Origin: Candidatus Cloacimonadales bacterium
Lineage (GTDB): Bacteria; Cloacimonadota; Cloacimonadia; Cloacimonadales; JAIOQZ01
Length of the DNA stretch: 64,000 nucleotides
Assembly (NCBI GenBank): GCA_963662655.2
Contig: CAXXTU010000002.1
Location: 1,344,001 to 1,408,000, forward strand
Direction: 5' to 3'
Part shown: one piece after another, positions 1 through 60,509 of the stretch
Layout: every line of letters begins with the position of its first letter
Position numbering within the stretch: position 1 is the stretch's first letter
Program-made: the position numbers and the translations under genes
Notes under the pieces: model-generated
Seen by the model: the letters and a program-made list of their open reading frames with translations, nothing else
Told to the model about the DNA's origin: nothing
Databases searched by the model: none

Positions 1-1
1 G

Positions 2-166
2 CGGTTCACGCAACGAATCCAGGAGTCACTCCAGCGCATCATGGGGATCATGGAACGTATCGAGAACCTGGAGCGTGTGCAGTATGGCGATTACACGGAA
101 GGAACCTCGATGGTCGATCTCGATTGCGCGAGCACAGACGATTTCGCTGAGCTGGACGAGTGTTAA
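2..166 (+). CDS. 3' end of a gene truncated by the window edge (possibly the C-terminus of a signalling protein)
   Basis: Open frame from base 2 (RFTQRIQESLQRIMGIMERIENLERVQYGDYTEGTSMVDLD...) to TAA at 164-166. Confidence 0.5.
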   Translation, partial: RFTQRIQESLQRIMGIMERIENLERVQYGDYTEGTSMVDLDCASTDDFAELDEC

Positions 167-203
167 TAAACGCGATGTAAACCACTTATTATCAGGAGAT
201 AAC

Positions 204-1010
204 ATGCTTCGCACAACGTTTCTTCTCGTATTCTCGGCACTATCCATCTGTATCCTGGCCGCCAGCGACAAAATAGCCATCACCGGCTCCACAACCGTCT
301 TCCCCATCGCGGAGAAATGCGCGGAAGCGTTTGAATCCGAGCATCCGGAAGTCGAATTCGAAATCGCCTCGACGGGATCGAGCGTGGGGATTTCGTCCAT
401 CATCGACGGCAGCGCAGACATAGGAAACGCGTCGCGTCCGGCCAAGCAGAAGGAGATCGATGCCGCCAGAAAATCCCACATCGAACTGTTTGAGACGCCG
501 ATCGCGATGGATGGCGTGGCCGTGGTGGTTCATCCCGAAAACCCGGTGACAAACATATCGCTGCAACAGCTTCAGGACATTTACACCGGCAAAATCACAT
601 CGTGGAAGGCGCTCGGCGGCGAGGACGCGCCCATCCTGATCATCTCGCGCGATCCGTCGTCTGGTACCTTCGAGGTGTTCAACACGATCGTTCTCAGGAA
701 AAAAGAGCTCTCGCCGACGGCGATTCTCGTGCAGGGCAATCAATCCGTTGCAGATGCGGTTGCCATGACGAGGTACGCGATCGGCTACATCGGTTTCGGC
801 TTCCTGCAGAACGACCTGAAGGCTGTTTCGATCGAGGATATCGAACCAACCGACGAAACGATCCTCAGCGGCCACTACGCGATTTCCCGCAAGTTGTTCA
901 TGTACACCGACGGCAAGCCGGAAAAAACCGTCGGGGAATTCATTCGCTTCATCCTCTCTCCCAAGGGGCAGCAGATCGTGCGGGAAACCGGCTTCCTGCC
1001 GGTGCGATGA
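204..1010 (+). CDS. pstS: Phosphate ABC transporter substrate-binding protein PstS
   Basis: Motifs ITGSTTVFP, STGSSVG, ADIGNASR, ISRDPSSGT, AIGYIG; signal peptide; AGGAG before ATG 204. No pstCAB follows. Confidence 0.9.
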   Translation: MLRTTFLLVFSALSICILAASDKIAITGSTTVFPIAEKCAEAFESEHPEVEFEIASTGSSVGISSIIDGSADIGNASRPAKQKEIDAARKSHIELFETPIAMDGVAVVVHPENPVTNISLQQLQDIYTGKITSWKALGGEDAPILIISRDPSSGTFEVFNTIVLRKKELSPTAILVQGNQSVADAVAMTRYAIGYIGFGFLQNDLKAVSIEDIEPTDETILSGHYAISRKLFMYTDGKPEKTVGEFIRFILSPKGQQIVRETGFLPVR

Positions 1011-1011
1011 T

Positions 1012-1437
1012 TTACTGAATGGGCATGATATCCTGGGGCTTGTCGGGATCGATATCCACGTGGATAAATTGTTTGTCCCTGTAGATCACAATCCGCCGGA
1101 AACCTGCTTGCAGAAGCCCATAGACGATGCGGAAACGCAATGCGTGATCCGTGGCGGAGATGTCGGCAGCCAGTCCCTTCATGTGGCTGGAAGTGGGTGA
1201 ACCGCCGATCTCCCGGTTGTGCTTCTCGCATCGGTAGCCGGAATTGATCCTGAAAGGCACGCCGGCGATCTTCCTGGCGGCATCCAGCATCGAAACGAGT
1301 TGGGCTGATATATTTTGCGAGTTGCAGCAACGGCACTGAAATTCTTCTGCCCGGAAGTGTCGAATCGAACGCCAGTCCGGCGCTGTAATGAGATATGCTC
1401 CTCCTTCCGAAGAAAGAGGAGCTTCCGTTCTCGTCAA
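1012..1437 (-). CDS. Phage-type endolysin, peptidase M15A (D-Ala-D-Ala carboxypeptidase-like)
   Basis: HF..EF.C.CC, INSGYRC..HN..IGG...SSH..G.AAD, FIHVD. Start uncertain: TTG 1437 overlapping the upstream stop, or ATT 1389 after a Shine-Dalgarno (SD) sequence. Confidence 0.85.
   Translation of the reverse strand: MTRTEAPLSSEGGAYLITAPDWRSIRHFRAEEFQCRCCNSQNISAQLVSMLDAARKIAGVPFRINSGYRCEKHNREIGGSPTSSHMKGLAADISATDHALRFRIVYGLLQAGFRRIVIYRDKQFIHVDIDPDKPQDIMPIQ
1397..1422 (-). promoter_or_regulatory. UUCG-tetraloop hairpin sequestering an AAGGAGGAG SD sequence
   Basis: Minus strand GCTCCTCTTTC-TTCG-GAAGGAGGAGC, an 11-bp stem. Confidence 0.6.
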
Positions 1438-1610
1438 CGGGCCCACCCGAAGGCGGAGTAGAGAATCAGTTGAAGAATCTCCACCGCGCTGTCGTCGAGC
1501 TTGTTTTCGGTCTTCTCTGCTACATCCTTCAGCCAGTCTAGGAAAACGTCCACGATCACCTTGACGGGCAGAATTCTCATGATGTGCTTCATGATGCTTG
1601 TCCAATCCAT
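1434..1610 (-). CDS. 58-aa amphipathic phage lysis-associated protein (holin/disruptin-like position), missed by the ORF track
   Basis: AAGGAGG SD then MDWTSIMKHIMRILPVKVIVDVFLDWLKDVAEKTENKLDDSAVEILQLILYSAFGWAR; the KTxNKLDD motif is typical of small phage proteins next to endolysins. Confidence 0.7.
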   Translation of the reverse strand: MDWTSIMKHIMRILPVKVIVDVFLDWLKDVAEKTENKLDDSAVEILQLILYSAFGWAR

Positions 1611-1633
1611 GAATCCCTCCTTGCGAATACCGT

Positions 1634-2083
1634 TTATACGGTTACACTGATGTTCTTCAAATCGATGTACTCCTGGCTGATCAACTTGAGGTACACGCTG
1701 TCGTACTGCGGATACGGCAAGCCGCTCTCGCCCGATGCGAACGGCTGATATTTCTCGATGACGAAGATCACTTCCCAGGCGTTTGTCCCGGAGGCGTCGC
1801 CGTGAATCCTCAGCTTGATCGTCTCCTGAGCACGTAAAGCCTTGAAAATACCCATGGCGTCACGGTCGAGGTTGTAAACGACGAGCTCCGCTTGCATGCG
1901 TCCGTAGTCCTCGCAGGCCGCCTTCTCGTGTATCGAGATTTTGCCTGTTATCGACGAGGTATGAAAAATCCTGTCCTTTACCCAGGAGTATTCGAAGTTA
2001 CAATCTTCTTGTGAAAGGTCCCAACTGGAACCGTAGGATGTCCCGTAGAAGATGACGGGAGCTTGGGTGCCCCAATATGCCAC
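1634..2083 (-). CDS. Phage distal-tail (Dit)-like small tail protein
   Basis: 149-aa beta-rich ORF directly after the tail-tip gene in the operon; GGAGG SD. Function inferred from position. Confidence 0.45.
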   Translation of the reverse strand: MAYWGTQAPVIFYGTSYGSSWDLSQEDCNFEYSWVKDRIFHTSSITGKISIHEKAACEDYGRMQAELVVYNLDRDAMGIFKALRAQETIKLRIHGDASGTNAWEVIFVIEKYQPFASGESGLPYPQYDSVYLKLISQEYIDLKNISVTV

Positions 2084-3859
2084 TTATGCCTCCTGTTTGA
2101 TTTCCGAAGTGAAGTTGACCAGATCGTCCACCTTGCGGACGTAACGCTCGTCCGCTTCTGCCGTGAGCTCCGTTTTGACGTTGATATAGGCGATATCGCG
2201 CCGGAAGGTGGAATCGAGGATATCGACGAGCTGTTCTTCGAGCGCGGGACTGATATCGGTGATCTGGTTGCTTGTGCTCGCATGTCTCTGTAGGGTGAAA
2301 TGATCCGTCAGGTTCACGTCGATGACCGAGTTCTTTACCTTGTAGGAGCTGCTGATGTTGTTCGCCGATATCTCCTCCGAATCGGATGACGTCCAGCTAT
2401 CCCAGTAGTTGATTCCCGACGACAGGCGTATTTGATTGACCTGATAATACTTACGCTGCTTTTCGACGCTCTGCCGGAACGCGATGATCTTCTCGTCGCT
2501 GTAAGAAACCGTGCTGTAACTCGTTCTCCGGAACTTCACGACCGAGTCGTCGATCAGGAATGTCAGCCTTAGAGCCAGAAGGAGTTCGCGGAACAGGGTC
2601 AGCATATCGGCGCTGTCGTTGTCCTCTTTGTTGCCCCTGCCGGCGTACATCAGACTGTATTGGCTCACCGCGAACCATTTGTAACTCATTGCGCTGGATG
2701 AATCCGTGTAGTCGGACGCGGCATCAAAAATCCCGGCAGTATCGACGGAGAGGATATTATCGTATTGCAGGAAGTAGATCGCGCTTTTCAGCAGGTAAAG
2801 CGCACTCACCCATCTTCTCGAACTGACGCCGACATCGTAGAAATACTCCGTCGTGCTGTAGTTCGAGCCCGAGAACAGCACCGGCGTAATGTTGCTCCAC
2901 CAGTCGGTTCGCGATGCTGCGAACGTGCTGGAGCCGGTGAGATAGCAATCGGAAGAGACTTGCTCCAGCGCGGTGAAGATGCTCTCGCAGTAAATACGCT
3001 TCAAGCCCTCGTCCTGCTCCTCGATACGGTGCACGCGGTAGAACCAATTCTCCTTACCGAGCGTGACTTCTTCGATGGCGATGGTGTCGTTGATTCGGAT
3101 GGCGTCATCGCCGTACCAGATAAACGACATGTCACACAGCACGGGGGTGCGGAGACTGTCGGTCTCCTGCTTGAGCTGGGAGATGTCCATCACCTGATCG
3201 GAGATATCCGTCTTCGTTGCCCAGAAATCAGAAGGCATTGTACCACTAACGGTTGCATCAAGGATGTTGAAGTGATCCTTGACCGTCATGTAACCGGCTC
3301 CACCGTAGTTTTTGTAACCAACGAGCCTTCTATGCGTGGACGATCGCGTGTACCAGAAATCGAAGATCGTACCGGTGAAGTGTCGCAGCGGAGCGTTTGA
3401 GACATCGCTCGTCGCTCCCACAAACAGATTTGACGTTGCCAGCGTTCCGGATGAAACGCACGACCTCGATTCCGAGAACACCGGGTTGTTGTATTGATCC
3501 CGGACGGCGAGGACGATCTCCGGTGTGGCGGAAATGTACACGCTGACGTTGTAGATTTCATCGGCATTGAGCTCCAGATCGCCGAAATCGTAATCGGTAT
3601 CCAGATAGCGGACGCGCAAGTAGAAGTTATCGCTTGCGTTGAGTATCTTCAAGCTGTACACGTCGTCACCATTCCCCATGCCCCAGACACATTGCTCGGT
3701 TGGTAGCAGCAACATGGACGACAGCCGGAAACGGCACTTGACGGGCGAAAGGATGTCTGTTGTTGCCAGCGTCGCGTTCGTATCGACATACACCGCCCCG
3801 TTGAACTTCATGCCGTTGTAGTGGTCTCTATAATGCCAGATTTTCACCTGTGCCATCAT
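2084..3859 (-). CDS. Phage tail-tip/hub protein with N-terminal LamG/concanavalin-A-like domain
   Basis: Follows the tape measure gene; MKFNG...NLFVGA...FTGTIFDF resembles LamG; then TDISDQV, typical of tail proteins. Confidence 0.6.
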   Translation of the reverse strand: MMAQVKIWHYRDHYNGMKFNGAVYVDTNATLATTDILSPVKCRFRLSSMLLLPTEQCVWGMGNGDDVYSLKILNASDNFYLRVRYLDTDYDFGDLELNADEIYNVSVYISATPEIVLAVRDQYNNPVFSESRSCVSSGTLATSNLFVGATSDVSNAPLRHFTGTIFDFWYTRSSTHRRLVGYKNYGGAGYMTVKDHFNILDATVSGTMPSDFWATKTDISDQVMDISQLKQETDSLRTPVLCDMSFIWYGDDAIRINDTIAIEEVTLGKENWFYRVHRIEEQDEGLKRIYCESIFTALEQVSSDCYLTGSSTFAASRTDWWSNITPVLFSGSNYSTTEYFYDVGVSSRRWVSALYLLKSAIYFLQYDNILSVDTAGIFDAASDYTDSSSAMSYKWFAVSQYSLMYAGRGNKEDNDSADMLTLFRELLLALRLTFLIDDSVVKFRRTSYSTVSYSDEKIIAFRQSVEKQRKYYQVNQIRLSSGINYWDSWTSSDSEEISANNISSSYKVKNSVIDVNLTDHFTLQRHASTSNQITDISPALEEQLVDILDSTFRRDIAYINVKTELTAEADERYVRKVDDLVNFTSEIKQEA

Positions 3860-4913
3860 AGCCTCCCCTGTTCATTCGTCTGCGCGCCGAGTCGATCCGC
3901 ATGATCGCCGTTTCAGCGTCTCCGCTCCCGCCTGCCGTCACGCTGAATTCTTTCTTGATCAGGTTGATGTTCAGCGCACGGAGTTGCGTGGAAATCCGGT
4001 CGAGCTTCTCCCCCAGGCTACCGGAGCTCCCGTGGTTGATTGCATGGAGAAGATCGAGATTCCCGCGCGCCGCTTGCGCGCTGATTACATACTCGCCGTT
4101 GCTGAGAAGCGCGGGGATCGAGTCGGAAGTCGAGCTTCCCGGGCCGGACACGTAACCGCCGTAGGCGTAGGTTTGCGCCTCGATTTCCGCGACGTTCGCC
4201 GCCGTTTTCGCTGTCGCGACCGCTGCCGCGGCCGCCGCGACCAGCGGCGCAGCCGATCCACCGTATTTCATGCCCCATGCGTATGCCGATTGCACCGCCT
4301 GAAGCCCGTCCAGGATCGCCTGGATCATGGACAGACGCTTCCAGGTCTCGAAGCCCTTGCGTCCATACGCGCGAGCGATGTCCGCAAGGTCGCCGAACAT
4401 ATCCGCGGTACCCTCCAGAAGCTCCCTCTGACGGGCCTGCTCCCGCTTGAGGTACTTCTGGCGAATCCCGTCGCGATCCTTCTCATAGTACTCCAGAATC
4501 GTGCGACGCGCTTCCTCGTGCTCCTCGTACATCGCGCGCTGCTTCTCGTACTCCTGCTGCTGGAGCTCGGTCCTGGCGATGATCAATTCCTGCGCTCCGG
4601 CCAGCGATTCCTTTGCGTACTGCTCCTGGGATTCCACCGCGCTGAGCAGCAACTCGTTGCGACTTCTCGCCTCGTCCCGCATCCACTGCACCTGCTGCTG
4701 ATGGCGTTCGCGCATATCGGAAGCCGAAGATTTTCCGGGAAGCATCTTGCGGGACGCTTCTCCCAGAGCCGACATCGAACCTCTGGTCGCATCGAGCGTC
4801 TTCTGAAGGTTCTTCAGCAGTTGATCGGTGCTGCTCAGCGAGTCGTTGAGCGTGCGCACGCTTCTACCGCCTTCAATGAAAATCTGGTTATCCCATGTTG
4901 TATTTCTTTTCAT
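3828..4913 (-). CDS. Short tape measure protein (361 aa)
   Basis: Coiled-coil body, Ala-rich segment and C-terminal YAYGGYVSGPGSSTSDSIPALLSNGEYVI motif of lambda-family tape measures; ATG 4913 after GAGG. Confidence 0.85.
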   Translation of the reverse strand: MKRNTTWDNQIFIEGGRSVRTLNDSLSSTDQLLKNLQKTLDATRGSMSALGEASRKMLPGKSSASDMRERHQQQVQWMRDEARSRNELLLSAVESQEQYAKESLAGAQELIIARTELQQQEYEKQRAMYEEHEEARRTILEYYEKDRDGIRQKYLKREQARQRELLEGTADMFGDLADIARAYGRKGFETWKRLSMIQAILDGLQAVQSAYAWGMKYGGSAAPLVAAAAAAVATAKTAANVAEIEAQTYAYGGYVSGPGSSTSDSIPALLSNGEYVISAQAARGNLDLLHAINHGSSGSLGEKLDRISTQLRALNINLIKKEFSVTAGGSGDAETAIMRIDSARRRMNRGGYDGTGENLAL

Positions 4914-5235
4914 TCTGTCCTCGTTCCTGCTTTTCCGCCAGCGTCTCCTGCTGGATTCGTTCCGCGAGCGAATAGAGCTCCATGAACCACCCGGGCTGAG
5001 CCCGTTGGTCACCCGGCCACGGATACCGCACTCCACCGCGTGAATTCTCGATCAGATAGCTCAATACAAGCTTCACGGCCGGTAACATCCTCGGAAACGG
5101 AGTTCCATCTCTAGCTCTCTTGCACGTCTCTCTCGCGAGACAGTTCCCACAGAAGGTATGATCCCCGGCGAAGCTGGTTATAACGCCCTCCCAGCGATCT
5201 CCGGAGAAGATCATCAATCGGAGGGCGTGCGTTAG
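4888..5235 (-). CDS. Tail assembly chaperone C-terminal extension (gpGT-like), reached by -1 frameshift
   Basis: The -1 frame after A AAA AAC reads LTHALRLMIFSGDRW...CGNC...YPWPGDQRAQPGWFMELY; lies between the chaperone and tape measure genes. Confidence 0.75.
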   Translation of the reverse strand, partial: LTHALRLMIFSGDRWEGVITSFAGDHTFCGNCLARETCKRARDGTPFPRMLPAVKLVLSYLIENSRGGVRYPWPGDQRAQPGWFMELYSLAERIQQETLAEKQERGQNEKKYNMG

Positions 5236-5633
5236 TTTTTTCGGATCGCCTCGCGGTTCCGGCGATACTCCTCTTCCATCGAGCCGATCTCTTCCCAGAG
5301 AAGCTCCAGAACATCCTCCCTCAGCAGATTGACGCTCTCCAGCGTCACCGAGCGCTCAAATACCCAGCCCTCGCGGTCTACGCGACGGCTCACACCGTCC
5401 AGCTCTCCGCCCAAAGCCAGCACAACCTTCGCCAGGCGGAGGGTTTCAGGCTGGACACCTTCGTATACCGGTTCTTCTCCGTTGAAGGACATCTTGCCCA
5501 TGAATGGCAGCAGCGCGTCCCGGTCCAGGGGCCGTAAATGACGGATGGTCGCGATCCGCTGACCGTCGAGAAAGACGTCACGCGTCAGAGCGGCCCCGTG
5601 ATCCTCGAAACAGTTCTTGATTTTATCGCTCAT
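5232..5633 (-). CDS. Tail assembly chaperone (gpG-like), 133 aa
   Basis: Lies between tail tube and tape measure; ends CGA AAA AAC TAA (slippery site). Confidence 0.75.
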   Translation of the reverse strand: MSDKIKNCFEDHGAALTRDVFLDGQRIATIRHLRPLDRDALLPFMGKMSFNGEEPVYEGVQPETLRLAKVVLALGGELDGVSRRVDREGWVFERSVTLESVNLLREDVLELLWEEIGSMEEEYRRNREAIRKN

Positions 5634-5641
5634 ACCGCCCC

Positions 5642-6598
5642 CTACGTAACGATGATCTTTACGGAGGGATTCGTATTGTCCGCCATGAGCTGCACGGTTG
5701 CGGAAAACGCGAATATCTGCCTCTCGGGATCGGCCGGATTCACCGCGGTGATCTTGCCGTTGGTTTCGACGACCCACTGATGCGTTCCGTCCGTGAGTGT
5801 GAAATCGACGTTGCCATAGGTAACATCGCTGGAAAGCAGCTCATCCTCGAACCAGCCGCTGGCGGAGTCGTAATTCGTATCGAAGGTCGCCTCTCCGCTG
5901 AAACCTTCGATGAGCTCCCGCCGCTTGGTGAATGAATTCTGGTAAAGCGCGTTCTCGTTGATGAAGCGATTCGCCAGTGAGAGGCTGAATGAATTGAAGC
6001 TGCTATAGGCGGCATCGAAGAGATTGATCGAGTGGATGTCGCCAACCAGGAAAGGCTTTACGTGCGGCGTCGCCACCATTCCATAGGCTGCGTAATCGCC
6101 GGATGACAAATCGACCTCCGTCTCGATGCTTTTAACCCTGAACACCGCTTCGAAGGTGACCGTGCCGTTGCTTTCGCCGGTGATGTTCATGCTCTCCAGG
6201 ACGCATCCCGTGGCGACATTGCCCTTTGCATCGTCCGTGAAATATTGGTGAATCTCATACGAGAAGGGGGTGTTGCCCGATTGAACCTGGTATGGCGAAG
6301 CGCTCTTGGAGAAAAGCCCTTGCAACATGATTGCGTGCAGGTGGGAAAGCTCGCCGCTGATCGTGACCGCTCCCCCTTTCCTGCCGGCGAGAACCTCGGA
6401 GTGGTAAGGCTCGATTTTCCCTGTCTTGGCACGTACGGTGATTGCTTCACGCGTGGGCTTCATCACAATCGAGTTCGCCAGAATGATATCGATCGAGCTG
6501 TAGTCTCCCGCATAGCTTCCATAACCGCTTCCCGTACCGGATTCCTGTTCCTTGAACAGAGTAATCAAATACCTGTTCCCATATCGATATGCGCACAT
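5642..6598 (-). CDS. Phage tail tube (major tail) protein
   Basis: Pattern KEQES..YG, GAVTISGEL, SYEIHQ, ATGCVLESMNI, FSLSLAN, SGEATF typical of siphoviral tube proteins. No sheath gene. Confidence 0.75.
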   Translation of the reverse strand: MCAYRYGNRYLITLFKEQESGTGSGYGSYAGDYSSIDIILANSIVMKPTREAITVRAKTGKIEPYHSEVLAGRKGGAVTISGELSHLHAIMLQGLFSKSASPYQVQSGNTPFSYEIHQYFTDDAKGNVATGCVLESMNITGESNGTVTFEAVFRVKSIETEVDLSSGDYAAYGMVATPHVKPFLVGDIHSINLFDAAYSSFNSFSLSLANRFINENALYQNSFTKRRELIEGFSGEATFDTNYDSASGWFEDELLSSDVTYGNVDFTLTDGTHQWVVETNGKITAVNPADPERQIFAFSATVQLMADNTNPSVKIIVT

Positions 6599-6612
6599 AG
6601 TTCCTCCTTTGG

Positions 6613-7065
6613 TCAGTCGTCGTCTCGCGTGTCGAGAATCTGCATTCTGAAGCAGATCTTGCGGATGTTGAGATTGTTGTAGATGCCCGGCTCATGGTAG
6701 TCCGTCGCTTCGCCGCGAACCTCACCCTTTTCGATGGAAACCGCTTCCAGATTGTGGATGTATTCGGCAATGCCGACCGCACCTAGTACCTTGTCGATGA
6801 TCACGTCCCCAAGGACGTTCATCGTAATGACCCGGTTCTGTCCCGGGCGATGATATAACCAGACATTGATCTCGTAGGAGTAGCGAATCTGGCCGCCGGC
6901 CAACATCACGTATTCCGGCTGATCTCCATCCTGAACCAGAACCGCAGGCAGTTTCCTTCCGATGCGATCGATGTCGTCCGGAAACTCTCCCACATACTCG
7001 AATAAATCCTCGCTGCTGAACAGGGTTTTAATCCAGTTGATTACTTCGTTTTGATATGCGTGCAT
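6613..7065 (-). CDS. Tail terminator / tail completion protein
   Basis: 150 aa, LPAVLVQDG..., located between adaptor and tube genes. Confidence 0.6.
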   Translation of the reverse strand: MHAYQNEVINWIKTLFSSEDLFEYVGEFPDDIDRIGRKLPAVLVQDGDQPEYVMLAGGQIRYSYEINVWLYHRPGQNRVITMNVLGDVIIDKVLGAVGIAEYIHNLEAVSIEKGEVRGEATDYHEPGIYNNLNIRKICFRMQILDTRDDD

Positions 7066-7074
7066 TGGTTCACC

Positions 7075-7812
7075 TCATCGTTTGATTCGCGTTGAATAGT
7101 TGATGTTCGCTCGATACTTGTCTACGGCGCCGTCGAGAGTCGTATCCAGATTGACGGCCTTGGACGCCGCGTCGAAGTGGTCCTTGAACACGCGATGGTA
7201 AAACTCGGCCTTCGTCCAGTACATCTCTCGGCCCATCGCATTTGCCAGATCGGTGTAGATCAGGTGCAAGGAGAGGTAGTCGCTGCAGATGTCGAATAAA
7301 TCGGGATTGGCAACAATATCCAGGAGGACTTTTCCGGAGGCTTCGTCCACGGAGTAACCCTGCGTCGAGAGAAGATTCTCCAACCTCCTGCCGATGATCT
7401 TCTTCGCCATGGCGATCTTGTCGAGCCAGTTGGCGCTAACCGTATAGGTTGCGTGAACGTCTGTTGAATCCAGCTCCGCATGGTTTCCGTTTCCCGAAAC
7501 GTCCAGAGCGGTCAACTCCACGCCCTCATCGCAGTGATACTCGGCGATCCTCGTTCCGTCAATATCGTAGCCGATGATCTTGAAGATAAATGTCTTCTCG
7601 GGCAATACCCAGATTTCATCGACATCCACCGATCTCATACTTCCCACCGGATTGAACCACTCGATACGTCTGATCTCGGGAGGAAAATAGAGCCTGTGCC
7701 CTGTGGAACCGCTGTAGCATTGGTGAACCGATCCCCCGGCAAGGATGTTTACTTCCGCATCGATTCGGGCAATTGAACTGGGCGTCGATAGAACAACGTT
7801 TTCCCAAGCCAT
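7075..7812 (-). CDS. Head-tail adaptor-like protein with an internal beta-domain insertion
   Basis: Position after the cement gene; helical C-terminal part (YLSLHLIY..., YWTKAEFY..F..HF, DTTLDGAVD). Confidence 0.55.
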   Translation of the reverse strand: MAWENVVLSTPSSIARIDAEVNILAGGSVHQCYSGSTGHRLYFPPEIRRIEWFNPVGSMRSVDVDEIWVLPEKTFIFKIIGYDIDGTRIAEYHCDEGVELTALDVSGNGNHAELDSTDVHATYTVSANWLDKIAMAKKIIGRRLENLLSTQGYSVDEASGKVLLDIVANPDLFDICSDYLSLHLIYTDLANAMGREMYWTKAEFYHRVFKDHFDAASKAVNLDTTLDGAVDKYRANINYSTRIKR

Positions 7813-7863
7813 AGATGATCTCCTTTTGATTGCGGGGAGAGGTTTCCCTCTCCCCCGATTTCA

Positions 7864-8319
7864 CTATGCGAGTGTGTGCAGAAACGCGTCGATTTTCTGC
7901 GCTGAATTGCTGGTCGTGGTCGTGTAATGAAGCTGCACGTAGGGGCGGTCTCGCAGCAATCCTTCAGGGATTGCGATGGCAGTGATGAGATCGCCGGCGC
8001 TGAAGGAAATCGCTCCATGGGTTGTATCTTTATACAAGAGATGGAAGCAGGCATTATTCAGCCAGCCGTTGGCGCTGTTCTTGAATGGAGGTGCGGCGCT
8101 GGCTGCATTTGCCGTTGCGGAGCATTCCAACTCGATTAGCAACACCTCGTCCGTCGCAATGGTTATCGCCGTGTTCGCGTATACGCGCAGCTCGACAATC
8201 CCTCCGCTGTCTCCCGCATAGCAGATATTGGTCGAGTCCATACCCGTTCCGTCGAATACGGCCTGGGCGTCCGAAAGCTTCATGTCCTCTTCTACAAGGT
8301 ATCCGTAAAATTTGCTCAT
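7864..8319 (-). CDS. Capsid cement/decoration protein (Bbp16-like)
   Basis: LSDAQAV...STN...YVQLHYT...KIDAFL resembles BPP-1 Bbp16; directly follows the major capsid gene. Confidence 0.7.
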   Translation of the reverse strand: MSKFYGYLVEEDMKLSDAQAVFDGTGMDSTNICYAGDSGGIVELRVYANTAITIATDEVLLIELECSATANAASAAPPFKNSANGWLNNACFHLLYKDTTHGAISFSAGDLITAIAIPEGLLRDRPYVQLHYTTTTSNSAQKIDAFLHTLA

Positions 8320-8328
8320 GGCTTGCTC

Positions 8329-9288
8329 CTAAATGGTTTCACTGGACGAGATGTTTTCTTCCAGAACAACAGGAATTCCATTCCAGCGTTCGATCAGCTT
8401 GTTGTAATCGGTATCCGCGCTCGAAACCTGCATTTTGCTTTCTTTGAGTTCCCAAAGCAGCCTGCGGCCGGTTCGATTGCAGTAGATGAATGTGTCACTC
8501 ACGCTTCCGCGAACCATGTCAATCAACTTGTCCATGTTGCCGGAAGTAGGCTTCTTCCCTGTCGCATCCTGGATGGAAACGTAAGCCGCGACGTTATCGG
8601 TTGTCGCGACAAGCAATCCCATGTAGGCTTCGTATAGGGCCTGATATACGGGCTTCACGGCGCCGGTTGAAGTATTGACGACAACCATCACCGGAGTTCC
8701 GTTGTTCAACGGGCGCACCGTTATCAGATGACCTTCCGCGAAGGCGTTCTCGTTGAAGAGACCGCAGCATGTGCCGGGTTTCCAGCGCACGGCGAGGATT
8801 GTGGTCCTGCTTCCCGAAGCTCCGGTCGCGTCGATAGTATTGCTGTTTGCGACAGCGTGCTGGCGGAGACCGGTGAATCCCTCCTCGTTGCCGAGAGATG
8901 TGTCGGTTCCGTAAACAAGCTGGCGCGCCGCCGTCTGGCCGAGTCCCTCGACAAACGAGGGAAGCTCATCGGCAAAGTACTTCTCCACGCCACCCGGGTA
9001 ACTCTCGCAGATCGCCTTGTCTTCCTGCTGGATGTCGGTGAGAATCTTGAGATCGGATTGTTGCACGATGTCCTCGGTGGTATGCGGAACGATGGAGCCG
9101 TTCACGGCACGGAAACCGCCGCCCGGGAGTTCCGGCTTGATTTTGAACTTGTGAAAGATGCCATGACTCGCCTTGATGAACGGCATGGTTGAGAGAATTC
9201 CGGATTCTCTGATCAGAGAATCGATGATCGATGTCTGGTTCGGTACGTTGTATGCCGCAGCCAGTTTCATGAGTGTTGCACTTGCCAT
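8329..9288 (-). CDS. Major capsid protein, HK97 fold (BPP-1 Bbp17 / epsilon15 gp7-like)
   Basis: IIDSL..ESGIL..MPF, LP..GFRAVN, LVYG..., GFTGL, TTILAVRW, IYCNRT, WNGIPV...ENI..SE. Confidence 0.85.
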   Translation of the reverse strand: MASATLMKLAAAYNVPNQTSIIDSLIRESGILSTMPFIKASHGIFHKFKIKPELPGGGFRAVNGSIVPHTTEDIVQQSDLKILTDIQQEDKAICESYPGGVEKYFADELPSFVEGLGQTAARQLVYGTDTSLGNEEGFTGLRQHAVANSNTIDATGASGSRTTILAVRWKPGTCCGLFNENAFAEGHLITVRPLNNGTPVMVVVNTSTGAVKPVYQALYEAYMGLLVATTDNVAAYVSIQDATGKKPTSGNMDKLIDMVRGSVSDTFIYCNRTGRRLLWELKESKMQVSSADTDYNKLIERWNGIPVVLEENISSSETI

Positions 9289-9855
9289 TTATCCTCCAAA
9301 TGCCTTGAAAACTTCAGTTAAATCCGTCCGCTTGCAGGGCTTGATTCCCTGAATCGGGCGAGCGCTGTCGTAGGTTTGTTCTTTCTCGAAGTATCCTGCC
9401 TTGAGATACGGCTTGATCGTCTGCAAGTTGTGATTGATGTCATCGGGAGAAAGAGGTTCCGTATCCGTTCCGAACCGGAAATCATCCCGGATCCGAAGCA
9501 TCTTCATGTACCGGGGATCATCCTCCGGAACTTCAAAGAAACGCTCGTACTCCTCCCAACGCTTTCTCCTGGATTCCTGAACCTGAACCCTCAGACCCTC
9601 GAGTTCTTCCTGAAGCGCTTCGACGTTCAGGTCTTCGAATCCCTTGAGCTTCCGCTTGTAACCTTCGAGCTCCAACTGCAGCTCCCGGACCTCCTCACGA
9701 AGTTCGTTTCGCTGAGAAATGACTTCGTCGAAGCGTGATTTGGGTATCTGGTTTTCGCTGGAAGCTGTCTGGATTTCGTCGAGAACCAGTTGCAGATCGT
9801 TCAGCAGATCGTTGTTCTCAATGGCGTGTTTCGCCAGGATATCCGTTAATGTCAT
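9289..9855 (-). CDS. Capsid scaffolding protein (GP20-like)
   Basis: IPKSRFDEV motif followed by coiled coil; directly upstream of the capsid gene; GGAGG SD. Confidence 0.75.
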   Translation of the reverse strand: MTLTDILAKHAIENNDLLNDLQLVLDEIQTASSENQIPKSRFDEVISQRNELREEVRELQLELEGYKRKLKGFEDLNVEALQEELEGLRVQVQESRRKRWEEYERFFEVPEDDPRYMKMLRIRDDFRFGTDTEPLSPDDINHNLQTIKPYLKAGYFEKEQTYDSARPIQGIKPCKRTDLTEVFKAFGG

Positions 9856-11843: not shown

Positions 11844-12046
11844 GCGGCGGGACGGCGTTGAAAACTCATTCGCCCCGCGTTGATTCATGCAACACCGAAT
11901 TCTGAGAACCAATTATGAGGCATGAACCAGCGCGGGGCTTTCCATGAGTTTTCTGGGAACGATTTCCCGTACAACCATAATCCATTTCGTGGTTCATCAA
12001 GCGGGAAATCGTTTCGTGCGCGCAGCGCACAACGCCGTCCCGCCGC
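11844..12046 (+). repeat. Four-way-junction structured repeat, copy A
   Basis: P1 11844-59/12031-46, P2 11860-69/11944-53, P3 11956-70/12001-15, P4 GTGCGC-GCA-GCGCAC 12016-30. Confidence 0.8.
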
Positions 12047-12140
12047 GGCAGCCGGTTGAGCAGACTCGAAGTTTCCGCTTCCCGAAGAAAAAGGTCGCAA
12101 GTAATACTTGCGACCTGAAGAAAGTGAGAGTTTTTGCAGC

Positions 12141-26111: not shown

Positions 26112-26139
26112 AAAGCCGGCATAACCTGCCGGCTTTTTT
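26112..26139 (+). terminator. Rho-independent terminator
   Basis: AAAGCCGGCA-TAACC-TGCCGGCTTTTTT. Confidence 0.85.
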
Positions 26140-26168
26140 GCGCTCTTCGATTCACCTCAGCAATCCCC

Positions 26169-26333
26169 GCGCGGCGCGGCGTGGAATCCCCCACATCCCA
26201 ACAGGATATTCACATTCATTCTCTTTAGCAGACGTAGAGTATCCTGTTGGGATTCCGGGAGGGATTCCTGGTAAGTTGCGAATGCACCGCATTCGCAACT
26301 TACCGTGTGCGAGGCACACACGCCGCGCCGTGC
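26169..26333 (+). repeat. Four-way-junction structured repeat, copy B
   Basis: P1 26169-82/26320-33, P2 GGAATCCC/GGGATTCC, P3 26270-85/26289-304, P4 GTGTGC-GAG-GCACAC. Confidence 0.8.
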
Positions 26334-40635: not shown

Positions 40636-40816
40636 GCGGCGGGGCGGCGTTGTGCGCTGCGCGCACTTACAAGATTCAGGAATGATTCTGCGGAATCATT
40701 CCTGAATCTTGCGAAGCCCGAAAAGAAACCCCGCACGAATCGCAGTTCGTTAAAGTTCATTCCAACCTTGTCGCGATTCGTGTGGGGTGAAGAGGGCTTC
40801 AACGCCGCCCCGCCAC
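40636..40816 (-). repeat. Four-way-junction structured repeat, copy C (inverted; closest to copy A)
   Basis: Minus strand: P1 GTGGCGGGGCGGCGTT/AACGCCGCCCCGCCGC, P2 GAAGCCC/GGGCTTC, long perfect P3, P4 GTGCGC-GCA-GCGCAC. Confidence 0.8.
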
Positions 40817-40942
40817 TCGGGTGGTGACCTGCATCAAAGGTCGGCAGCCTACTCGAGGCTACCAGAAAAAGGCAATTGCTCCCCAGATGATCGCACTCGC
40901 GATGATGAAAGCGCCAACGCTCTTCTTCTTCATGGATCGCTC

Positions 40943-43896: not shown

Positions 43897-44666
43897 TATT
43901 CAATATCTTCTGTATTGACATCATTCACAAATTCATCGTCTACTTGTCCCCGAATTATCGATAATAAATCACCTTGTAATCGTTGAATAAATAATGATAA
44001 CAGATCAGGTAGGCCAGATCTAGGATCCCAATCTGCAGCCGGACTGACAATATCGTAAGCTCCAAGCTCTAATGTTGCTCGAGTTCTATTAATATACTGT
44101 GCGTTACCAAGATTTCGTTTCGCTTCATATGCGTTAATCCCTATTGAATGCTCTATAGCTCGATCAGCTAAGATTTTTGCATCAACGGACATATTTAACA
44201 AAATCCCCGTCACCTTAGATTTGCTTGATATTCCAGAAACTTTAAACGAATTCATTTCGTATTTTAAATTGGCCCTCATGTCTACTGATTCTTCTGAAAG
44301 AAAGGTTTCGTAATAGCTTAATACATTATCAATTGCCTTGAAATATCCCGTTGTAGTATATGTCTCATTTCCATCGGGATCAATCTTGTTCACCGGGTTA
44401 TTCCCTACACATACATACGGACTATGGAACTCATCGGCGGGGTCCACCTGCTGCCATCTGCCAAGCTGCGGATCGTAGTAGCGCGCGCCGTAGTGGTACC
44501 AGTTGAGGTTGAAGTCGTCCTCCAGCTCCTTGCCGCTGTAAGTGTACTTGGTCTCCGGGCTGCCGGTAACATGGCTTAGGCCAGCCATCTTCATCCCGAA
44601 CGGATAGTAGTGGTCTTCCTGCATGATGGTCAATCCACTACCGGCTCTGTCCTTCTTGAAGCTCAT
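43896..44666 (-). CDS. Orphan Rhs-repeat core plus variable C-terminal toxin domain
   Basis: YYPFG, YTYSGKE, YHYGARYYDPQLGRW..VDP, PYV.VGNNPVNKIDPDG, then an AT-rich C-terminal domain. Confidence 0.8.
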   Translation of the reverse strand: MSFKKDRAGSGLTIMQEDHYYPFGMKMAGLSHVTGSPETKYTYSGKELEDDFNLNWYHYGARYYDPQLGRWQQVDPADEFHSPYVCVGNNPVNKIDPDGNETYTTTGYFKAIDNVLSYYETFLSEESVDMRANLKYEMNSFKVSGISSKSKVTGILLNMSVDAKILADRAIEHSIGINAYEAKRNLGNAQYINRTRATLELGAYDIVSPAADWDPRSGLPDLLSLFIQRLQGDLLSIIRGQVDDEFVNDVNTEDIE

Positions 44667-45094
44667 ACGCGTGTTCCCCAGTCTCGTTTCACTTTCATCA
44701 AATGACCATAACAGGTTTATCCTCTTTATTCTGCTTATTGATGGTCATTTGATGCCTTTGGTGTCGTAGATGAATTCATATTCACCTCTGTTCTCATTAT
44801 AACTGAGGCGCTCCTCCGGTGTAAAGATAAATTTAATTTTATCGTGATTGCGTACAGCATTTGCCTATTCATGGTAATGGTAGCAGGGGGGAATTTTCAT
44901 TCAGCCATTCTCACTCCTCACATCACACTGCATCGCAAGCCCATAAGGGTGCCAGGAACACCCTTTCTTCACATATTATAAACAACTAAAACACATACAA
45001 ATAATGTAAAAAAACGTCCTCGGAGGGATTTTCCTTGACGCAAAAACCGCAAAAAGAAATTTGAGGGAAATAATATACGCAAAGGAGAACTGGA

Positions 45095-60220: not shown

Positions 60221-60254
60221 AAGAGCGAGCCCTCAACGGGCTCGCTCTTTTTTT
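60221..60254 (+). terminator. Rho-independent terminator
   Basis: AAGAGCGAGCCC-TCAAC-GGGCTCGCTCTT followed by a T-tract. Confidence 0.85.
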
Positions 60255-60290: not shown

Positions 60291-60444
60291 GCGGGGGCGG
60301 CGGCGTAAAGCCCGACCATCCTTCACGTTGCGCGACAGCCTATTGGTCTTCACCGCCGAGTCACTTTCGCCCATGAATTGCCGAGGGCTTTTGCAAGGTT
60401 CGTGAACCTTGCCGTGCGCGAAGCGCACACGCCGCCGCCGCCGC
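60291..60444 (+). repeat. Four-way-junction structured repeat, copy D
   Basis: P1 60291-306/60429-44, P2 AAAGCCC/GGGCTTT, P3 GCAAGGTTC/GAACCTTGC, P4 GTGCGC-GAA-GCGCAC. Confidence 0.8.
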
Positions 60445-60481: not shown

Positions 60482-60509
60482 AAAAAAAGCCCCGCATTAA
60501 CAACGGGGC
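60482..60509 (-). terminator. Rho-independent terminator of the lipoprotein gene
   Basis: Minus strand GCCCCG...CGGGGC followed by T7. Confidence 0.75.

Follow-up and report, generated by a model that had tools for sequence, protein, structure and literature searches.

The window, a 64,000-nucleotide stretch of a Candidatus Cloacimonadales genome, contains four intergenic segments that differ in much of their sequence and appear to take the same shape. We asked what these segments are, what has preserved their shape and how they came to be where they are.

Four copies of one folded element in the window

A preliminary description had reported four elements in which a closing stem (P1) surrounds three hairpins (P2, P3 and P4), and all four lie where it placed them, copies 1, 2 and 4 on the forward strand and copy 3 on the reverse. 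We refer to this four-way-junction repeat as the 4WJ element, to the genome that holds the window (3.81 Mb in two contigs, C1 and C2) as G000, and to three sister genomes as G001 to G003. The copies and the sites beside them are:

11844..12046, + strand: copy 1, long class; P1 arms 11844-11859 and 12031-12046
11860..12030, + strand: inner arms of copy 1; P2 11860-11953, P3 11956-12015, P4 12016-12030 (GCA loop)
26169..26333, + strand: copy 2, long class; P1 arms 26169-26182 and 26320-26333
26183..26319, + strand: inner arms of copy 2; P2 26183-26268, P3 26270-26304, P4 26305-26319
40636..40816, - strand: copy 3, long class, class B; P1 arms 40801-40816 and 40636-40651
40652..40800, - strand: inner arms of copy 3; P2 40713-40800, P3 40669-40712, P4 40652-40666 (read last)
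40860..40933, - strand: ORF remnant near copy 3, 24 codons followed by a stop
60221..60249, + strand: terminator-like site directly upstream of copy 4, outside the element (context only)
60291..60444, + strand: copy 4, class A; P1 arms 60291-60306 and 60429-60444, with one mismatch
60307..60428, + strand: inner arms of copy 4; P2 60307-60392, P3 60393-60412 (short), P4 60414-60428 (GAA loop)
60489..60509, - strand: opposing terminator-like site directly downstream of copy 4, outside the element (context only)

Folded as single-stranded DNA, each of the four copies closes P1 around the three hairpins, with z-scores of -10.5, -14.4, -13.0 and -4.3 for copies 1 to 4; none of the 200 dinucleotide shuffles made for each copy was as stable. 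The P2 interior of copy 4 has decayed and is unpaired in the centroid fold. P3 had been described as a near-perfect hairpin, which does not hold for copy 1, where P3 contains a large internal loop. This P3 (11956..12015, + strand) has a sequence in common with hairpin B of FAM3, a two-hairpin repeat family considered below.

Copy 1 lies between convergent genes, directly past the YifB stop, and is of class B, whose cores are inverted with respect to the CC..TG junction. Copy 2 has a class A junction (CC 5', TT 3') and is preceded by a hairpin with a T-run at about 26113-26140, noted by eye and not called by our terminator scan. Copy 3 is situated after uvrC. Elsewhere in the window, positions 1-9855 carry prophage genes, including that of a major capsid protein (8329-9288), and genes for a portal protein, a protease and a DNA methyltransferase are found in several phage-like segments elsewhere in G000, nearly identical to each other (C2:482019-490770, 2743743-2752412 and 3311204-3317532). 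Positions 44371-44681 resemble about 13 places in a tandem array at 75-98 kb of G003:C4 (82-89% identity).

The family is abundant in one genome

The preliminary description had argued from four copies in 64 kb to many genome-wide, and this is borne out: a motif-and-fold scan of G000 found 76 complete copies of 105-205 nt (73 on C2, 3 on C1), and the same scan of the genome read backwards gave one raw match. There are also two 5'-truncated copies and one P1-only deletion derivative. Since one pair is a 557-bp segmental duplication, we count 75 independent loci. A scan for tight four-way junctions that used no motif made 65 calls in G000, all of them in the 4WJ family, and none in 1.2 Mb of G001; it missed a known copy in G002 and is therefore not fully sensitive.

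A pattern search found one copy in each of the three sisters and no copy in 37 further genomes of the order. With at most 150 candidates scored per genome, a covariance model found one locus each in G001 and G002 among seven family genomes, and it gave E = 0.00026 when run directly on the long G003 copy. The same search of 150 genomes of the phylum found only the G001 copy, at 22 candidates scored per genome, a depth that missed the known G003 copy. Together, these scans of the genome and its relatives, which the preliminary description had suggested making with a covariance model, give a family of 76 copies in G000 plus one in each sister. Exact-pattern scans returned two matches in metagenomes, neither of them a junction, no 4WJ match in viral contigs, and eight matches in GTDB, of which two were true copies, two belonged to a Polyangiales repeat (see below) and four were unrelated. 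A blastn search of plasmids and of phages, with one 4WJ copy each, gave no match.

Within G000, the copies are not clustered (9 neighbouring pairs closer than 7 kb, compared to 8.7 expected) and neither the core (37:36) nor the T strand defined below (31:30) is biased by replichore. By our own ORF caller, all are intergenic except one that overlaps an over-extended gene start. By gene context, 22 are convergent, 19 divergent, 21 antisense and 14 sense, and convergent gaps are enriched for copies (odds ratio 2.6, P = 0.0006). The genes between eight groups of close copies were ordinary (44/53 proteins scanned, of 77 listed).

Geometry is fixed and much of the sequence is free

The 76 copies separate what is fixed from what varies. 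The earlier statement that structure rather than sequence is conserved stands for P2 and P3 and fails for P1 and P4, both of which are conserved in sequence. P1 is GC-rich and 13-20 bp long (15 or 17 bp in 45 of the 63 copies measured), and 895 of 912 cells in its 12 inner pairs are Watson-Crick, in a scan that itself demanded at least 10 of 12. Its length varies through matching indels in both arms, which pair solely with each other and are not self-palindromic. P2 has a base of 7-9 bp in 50/76 copies and an arm of 18-32 nt in 33 copies or 61-99 nt in the other 43, 32 of which fall at 85-92 nt; many long arms have an inner helix and a loop of 20-30 nt besides an asymmetric internal loop. P3 measures 19-22 bp in 47/76 and is nearly free in sequence, such that in both P2 and P3 length and pairing are kept while the sequence turns over.

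P4 had been described as a fixed 6-bp stem with a GNR loop. We found ten stem variants (GTGCGC in 43 copies, GTGTGC in 18, GTTTGC in 8 and seven singletons), and the loop consensus is GNA, within a GCGNAGC mini-hairpin in 55/76 copies and its reverse complement in 5/76. At the four junctions, 0-1 bases are unpaired in 76, 66, 61 and 76 of the 76 copies.

Covariation is strong and can arise by arm copying

The compensatory changes that had been noted between arms are real. We aligned 29 of the 33 short copies with MAFFT and supplied the structure by hand; the covariation score was 0.475, compared to 0.145 in shuffles (0/500) and at most 0.187 with slid partners. Among 18 related pairs of P3 (at least 62% identity, the weaker of which may not be true homologues), 64 changes were two-sided and Watson-Crick, 13 were one-sided and 7 were others. 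RNA helices under selection usually tolerate G-U, and the interior mismatches showed no excess of G-T over A-C (18 vs 22; P = 0.64).

Template switching homogenises the arms of inverted repeats and inverts their spacers, as described in PMC8604942, so compensatory changes alone do not show selection. This process would give rise to changes on both sides, symmetric indels in P1 and reversed P4 loops, all of which we see; it does not account for the fixed arm lengths or for the 55:5 strand bias of the GNA loop. We conclude that arm-to-arm copying accounts for the covariation as well as selection does, and we offer a caution for RNA discovery, that a family can pass a covariation test strongly while its pair types and loops indicate DNA. 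Two other origins for the variable arms were considered and rejected: guide-like pairing, as the arms have no complementarity to their own flanks (P = 0.28), and capture from genes, apart from the FAM3 link.

Ends, flanks and orthologous sites

A T stands directly outside one P1 end in 63/76 copies, and 43 of those 63 read CC[GC..GC]TG; this junction T formed part of the copy classification, which 13/76 copies do not fit. The core is oriented one way relative to the junction in 53 copies and the other way in 10. The flanks have a weak, loosely dyad-symmetric consensus over 10-20 nt. Their similarity does not follow that of the core (Mantel rho 0.008, P = 0.40, n = 62), with 19 related pairs slightly more alike in the near flanks (P = 0.06), and the pairing energy of a copy's own two flanks is no better than that between copies (P = 0.97); an outer stem beyond P1, 'P0', was rejected. 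Neither inherited with the core nor a maintained stem, the flanks behave as a target. A direct repeat of 2-9 bp, overlapping the P1 ends, spans the junction in 58/63 copies, with modes of 4 and 6 bp. The junction allows two readings, this direct repeat and a C|T cut preceded by a shared CCGC. A search for a family of empty target hairpins found none.

Cores of up to 90% identity sit at unrelated loci, and the G002 core closely matches a G000 core on C1 in an unrelated gene context. The preliminary description had proposed to look for empty-site alleles, and two orthologous sites occur both with and without the element. At queD, G001 and G003 carry a copy and G000 does not; the two queD copies differ in P2 and P3 and lie within a larger palindromic insert of about 300 bp. 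At the site of copy 3, G002 and G003 have an intact ORF of 66-69 aa and no element, and in G000 copy 3 occupies the former 3' part of this ORF, of which 24 codons are retained. The family is thus very probably mobile, given the 76 copies in G000 compared to one in each sister, the flanks unlinked to cores, and the filled and empty orthologous sites. Since most cores are highly diverged (42/62 have no close relative), the movement may be old.

The queD region is itself unusual in G001 and G003 (L002:1240-1610, L004:1320-1620): a nested palindrome of about 300 bp makes up the entire divergent intergenic region, set between two inverted TTGAC boxes, with outer arms that differ between the genomes yet are self-complementary. 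In contigs of three sequencing runs (two from one sample, depth about 4), we found no excised or inverted form that we trust; a joint at 12047 was considered as an excision or inversion and rejected, because its 25-nt side likely comes from another copy.

Gene adjacency across 4WJ gaps is kept in G001 in only 1 of 36 informative cases, compared to 10-12 expected from class- or length-matched repeat-free gaps (1.2 of 3.9 Mb). Gaps holding another repeat family, FAM0, are likewise low (7/62). Recombination between copies as the cause of the breakpoints is unsupported, at low power: the partner sides are not enriched for 4WJ elements (2 vs 1.4 expected). Synteny between G001:C1 200001-600000 and G000 is very poor throughout (about 78 breaks among 262 orthologues, median protein identity 76%), and for this reason we do not attribute the loss of adjacency to any cause.

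A search for the enzyme

A linked HUH/RAYT transposase or reverse transcriptase had been suggested as the partner, and we found neither. G000 has no PF01797 match and, by our own profile of 37 Y1 frames, no Y1 remnant; Y1 genes are present in 96/121 genomes of the order, all three sisters included. Among the matches listed, no 4WJ element lies beside the inspected Y1 loci of the sisters, which other repeats flank, and the covariance model found none beside 30 Y1 loci of the order. The only reverse transcriptase gene of G000 carries an in-frame TGA and has no 4WJ element beside it. Searches of G000 for IS110 (PF02371, PF01548) and resolvase (PF00239) were negative, as were those of eight family genomes, G000 included, for TnpB (PF01385) and for an integron integrase (TIGR02249, above its cut-off); PF04986 had no match in G000, and its control was silent too. 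G000 has six tyrosine recombinase matches, one PF01609 transposase and two multi-copy IS types, which we take to be ISL3-like and IS3-like. None of seven IS types from G000, G002 and G003 (two of G000, two IS110 of G002 and three DDE) has P1-like ends.

One Y1 gene had at first looked cognate because it lies near xerC and G000 has a 4WJ copy beside xerC. This gene (137 aa) occupies one and the same site in G001 and G003, where it directly follows dinB and neighbours xerC; it was rejected, since it adjoins dinB and owns GTAG REPs. These REPs form REPINs, and gene and REP are both absent from G000. In the GTAG REPINs of G002 and G003, an outer stem encloses two weak side arms together with a central hairpin of about 22 bp, and one GTAG REP pair with such a central hairpin lies beside a Y1 gene in G003. 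The GTAG REPIN of the sisters is thus an analogue of the 4WJ element in layout, not in sequence. A lost RAYT-like enzyme is, tentatively, the likeliest mover, because TnpA-REP, as described in PMC8266576, cuts single-stranded DNA at C|T on either side of its hairpin, because REPIN spacers, in the account of PMC3116915, are likewise kept by length and pairing with compensatory change, and because the sisters carry Y1 genes.

Three further loci were noted in the course of this search. The interrupted reverse transcriptase gene of G000 (C2 near 981400; L101:1550-3109) has one TGA, is followed by two small ORFs and is possibly a decayed defence-type locus. Four of the 13 copies of a 1.35-kb ISL3-like element abut a 4WJ or FAM0 repeat (C2:2159248, 2630745, 1507623 and 1950524). 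An 86-aa GIY-YIG ORF lies within the rRNA operon spacers of two operons of G003 (L105, L106).

How the element may have spread

Our preferred reading, to which we give a probability of about 55%, is that the 4WJ element is a non-autonomous mobile single-stranded DNA with a predicted junction fold, most likely moved in trans by an HUH enzyme that would since have been lost. The element would travel as a single strand in its predicted four-way-junction fold; an HUH (RAYT-like) tyrosine transposase would act in trans and cut at C|T beside P1, and its gene would later have disappeared from G000. The two-sided changes and the flips of loops and cores would come from template switching, by which one arm is copied from the other; if the arms need to be of set length, this would be why the geometry persists while the sequence turns over. 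A passage through a folded single-strand stage is probable, and the assignment of the cut at C|T to an HUH enzyme is tentative.

The GCGNAGC mini-hairpin is extraordinarily stable as DNA and much less so as the corresponding RNA hairpin, and it occurs at ssDNA phage origins and N4 promoters, according to PMC13037366. DNA is favoured over RNA because this mini-hairpin is present in 55/76 copies, there is no G-U bias, orientation to genes is not fixed, the flanks at CC[GC..GC]TG are target-like, and orthologous sites are filled in some genomes and empty in others. The preliminary description had left the choice between a structured RNA and a single-stranded, REP/REPIN- or MITE-like DNA element; copy number, flanks, filled and empty sites and the mini-hairpin support the second, and the first is disfavoured. 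Several points count against our reading: the cognate enzyme was not found in our searches of G000 and inspected relatives, the P1 arms are not REP palindromes and carry no conserved GTAG tag, a fork-coupled ssDNA transposon might show a replichore bias that we do not see, the junction T entered the classification and 13/76 copies do not fit it, the contigs of the three low-depth runs showed neither excision nor inversion, and the reading of the junction as a direct repeat of 2-6 bp suits a double-strand recombinase.

That last reading would make the element a MITE or a recombinase-mobilised segment of double-stranded DNA, with P1 as its terminal inverted repeat, GC or CCGC(GC) as target duplication or crossover core, a palindromic circle junction that permits either orientation, and the inner hairpins as passengers. 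It draws on the direct repeats across the junction (2-9 bp in 58/63, modes 4 and 6 bp), the loosely dyad-symmetric target, the 37:36 strand balance and, from the account in PMC6542083, the tie of bcr1 mobility to a short repeated motif with a possible recombination-like mechanism. We consider it unlikely, as P1 ranges in length between 13 and 20 bp and its two arms carry matching indels, none of the seven IS types has P1-like ends, IS110, resolvase and integron integrase are all absent from the G000 searches, and passengers would not retain 0-1-nt junctions, a 20-bp P3 and a GNA loop. The geometry may instead be unneeded for movement, the copies being old repeats that template switching keeps paired and that remain at the borders of operons or serve as fragile sites prone to recombination. 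The 64 to 13 ratio of two-sided to one-sided P3 changes in the 18 related pairs agrees with this, as do the five reversed P4 loops and ten flipped cores, which template switching as described in PMC8604942 predicts, and the low adjacency in G001 (1/36 vs 10-12 expected). Yet this history explains neither the constant lengths (P3 of 19-22 bp in 47/76; long P2 of 85-92 nt in 32/43) nor the near-zero junctions and the 55 to 5 strand bias of GNA; breakpoint partner sides are not enriched (2 vs 1.4 expected), another repeat family also marks breakpoints (7/62 kept), and the copies still needed some means of spread. We regard it as rather improbable.

A structured RNA family, either a tRNA-like four-way junction or guide-like and possibly spread by reverse transcription, would account for the strong covariation of the 29 short copies (0.475 vs 0.145 shuffled) and for the asymmetric internal loop and constant length of long P2, and its structural analogue bcr1 is transcribed according to PMC3184786. 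This origin is very unlikely, however, since there is no G-U preference, the triloop is of DNA type, orientation to genes is not fixed, copy 4 is flanked by opposing terminator-like sites, no Rfam family reaches threshold, the variable arms are not complementary to their own flanks (P = 0.28), and the sole reverse transcriptase gene of G000 is interrupted by an in-frame TGA and lacks a neighbouring 4WJ element. A further possibility, which we think doubtful, is a minimal mobile ssDNA junction recognised by shape. Its mover would belong to none of the known transposase families and might be a recombinase or resolvase with which the host processes junctions. Arms of 15-17, 8, 20 and 6 bp would then be what is recognised, with the GNA mini-hairpin as the only fixed landmark; the arms would be regenerated by self-templated copying, and the chromosome would be reshuffled at 4WJ sites.

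By what route short structured repeats that lack their own gene have multiplied in bacterial genomes is still a question for bcr1, CGTC repeats and many REPIN-like families. For the single-strand transposition that we favour as for the other readings, the 76 natural variants split fixed features (geometry, arm lengths, GNA loop, CC..TG) from free ones and are a ready-made substrate series for finding the enzyme.

Other repeat families in these genomes

Several other repeats came to light. FAM0 comprises 165 intergenic segments in G000, at least 71 of them with both core motifs, and 24 loci in 1.2 Mb of G001 (examples are C2:610007-610140 and C1:121411-121503). Its fold is a long nested hairpin in which internal loops are conserved and stem segments covary freely, again with structure kept over sequence; we know of no enzyme for it. 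FAM5 (10 copies, C2:2713339-2713715 and nine others) is a nested hairpin with conserved outer arms. FAM2 (45 segments) lies on both sides of a small GIY-YIG gene in G000, G001 and G002; in G000 this gene has an in-frame TGA (L100:1200-2080, C2 near 885000; also L102, L103). FAM2 and the GIY-YIG gene are likely an Ssn-type nuclease-repeat pair despite the lack of a match to the published SRM pattern. One IS110-family element of G002 sits in FAM2-type repeats in 7/7 copies examined (L199-L205).

FAM3 and FAM4 (27 segments; e.g., C2:2139600-2139738 and C2:1053858-1053995) are AT-rich and have two hairpins. P3 of copy 1 is matched by hairpin B of FAM3, and two members lie directly against 4WJ elements, which suggests module exchange or shared ancestry. 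The Polyangiales repeat (G172; L213-L227, L063, L065; 15 pattern matches) is distinct from the 4WJ element; a variable centre and two mini-hairpins lie within a very long outer stem. P4 and the start of P1 are matched by one of these mini-hairpins together with the bases that follow it, through either convergence or remote kinship.

Comparison with known systems

The family had not been recognised as a known one, and searches of Rfam and for SRM, attC and IS ends were all without a match. At the gathering threshold, Rfam identified only a tRNA in the window; at E values up to 1, 16 loci gave weak generic hairpin matches, far below threshold. Integron attC sites are conserved in structure over sequence and recognised as folded single strands, with RYYYAAC and GTTRRRY boxes. 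This pair of boxes is present in 0/76 4WJ copies, which also have no cassette arrays, clustering or integron integrase. Non-autonomous IS200/IS605 elements differ as well: there is no TnpA in G000 and no TnpB in eight genomes, and the strands are balanced (37:36).

The Ssn-related motifs (SRM/NTS) of small GIY-YIG ssDNA nucleases are, in the account of PMC11893778, likewise ssDNA hairpins in repeated copies, with a partner protein that is possibly small or lost. The SRM pattern given there matched 0/76 copies exactly and 2/76 with one mismatch; it missed FAM2 too and therefore has limited reach in this genus. Moreover, it is FAM2, not the 4WJ element, that flanks the small GIY-YIG gene in G000, G001 and G002. 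MITEs such as RUP, NEMIS and Nezha are described in PMC3733652 and PMC3184786 as intergenic, 70-300 bp long and stably folded, with a terminal inverted repeat of 15-17 bp; P1 of the 4WJ element (13-20 bp, mostly 15 or 17) is comparable, and the element has no coding capacity. In contrast to MITEs, it has no IS with matching ends among the seven types examined, and its terminal repeat varies in length; a repeat of 2-9 bp, possibly a target duplication, overlaps the P1 ends.

REPINs and bcr1 come closest. Like REPINs as set out in PMC3116915, 4WJ elements are non-coding, extragenic, multi-copy and lineage-specific, with conserved inverted arms on the outside and, between them, a variable spacer whose sequence counts for less than its length and pairing, and with compensatory changes and a proposed ssDNA stage. 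However, their outer arms are not REP palindromes, G000 has no RAYT, and inside P1 three hairpins, one of them the conserved GNA mini-hairpin, meet in a tight junction. Over the whole of the outer flanks, GTAG was counted near 5/76 copies and CGTC near 13/76, and the flank logos have no conserved tag. The bcr1 repeat of the Bacillus cereus group, in the descriptions of PMC3184786 and PMC6542083, is about 155 bp long, present in tens of copies and lineage-restricted, with a cruciform-like fold kept by compensatory change and without a reported enzyme; its own features there are two stem-loops, 5-bp direct repeats with a TTTAT motif, and transcription. The 4WJ element differs in its three inner hairpins, its CC[GC..GC]TG junction and its sequence-free arms of fixed length. 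The mostly open-access literature that we searched gave no account of this family or of a tight three-hairpin junction repeat. Thus, we conclude that the 4WJ family is a previously undescribed structural variant of the REPIN/bcr1-like non-autonomous repeats.
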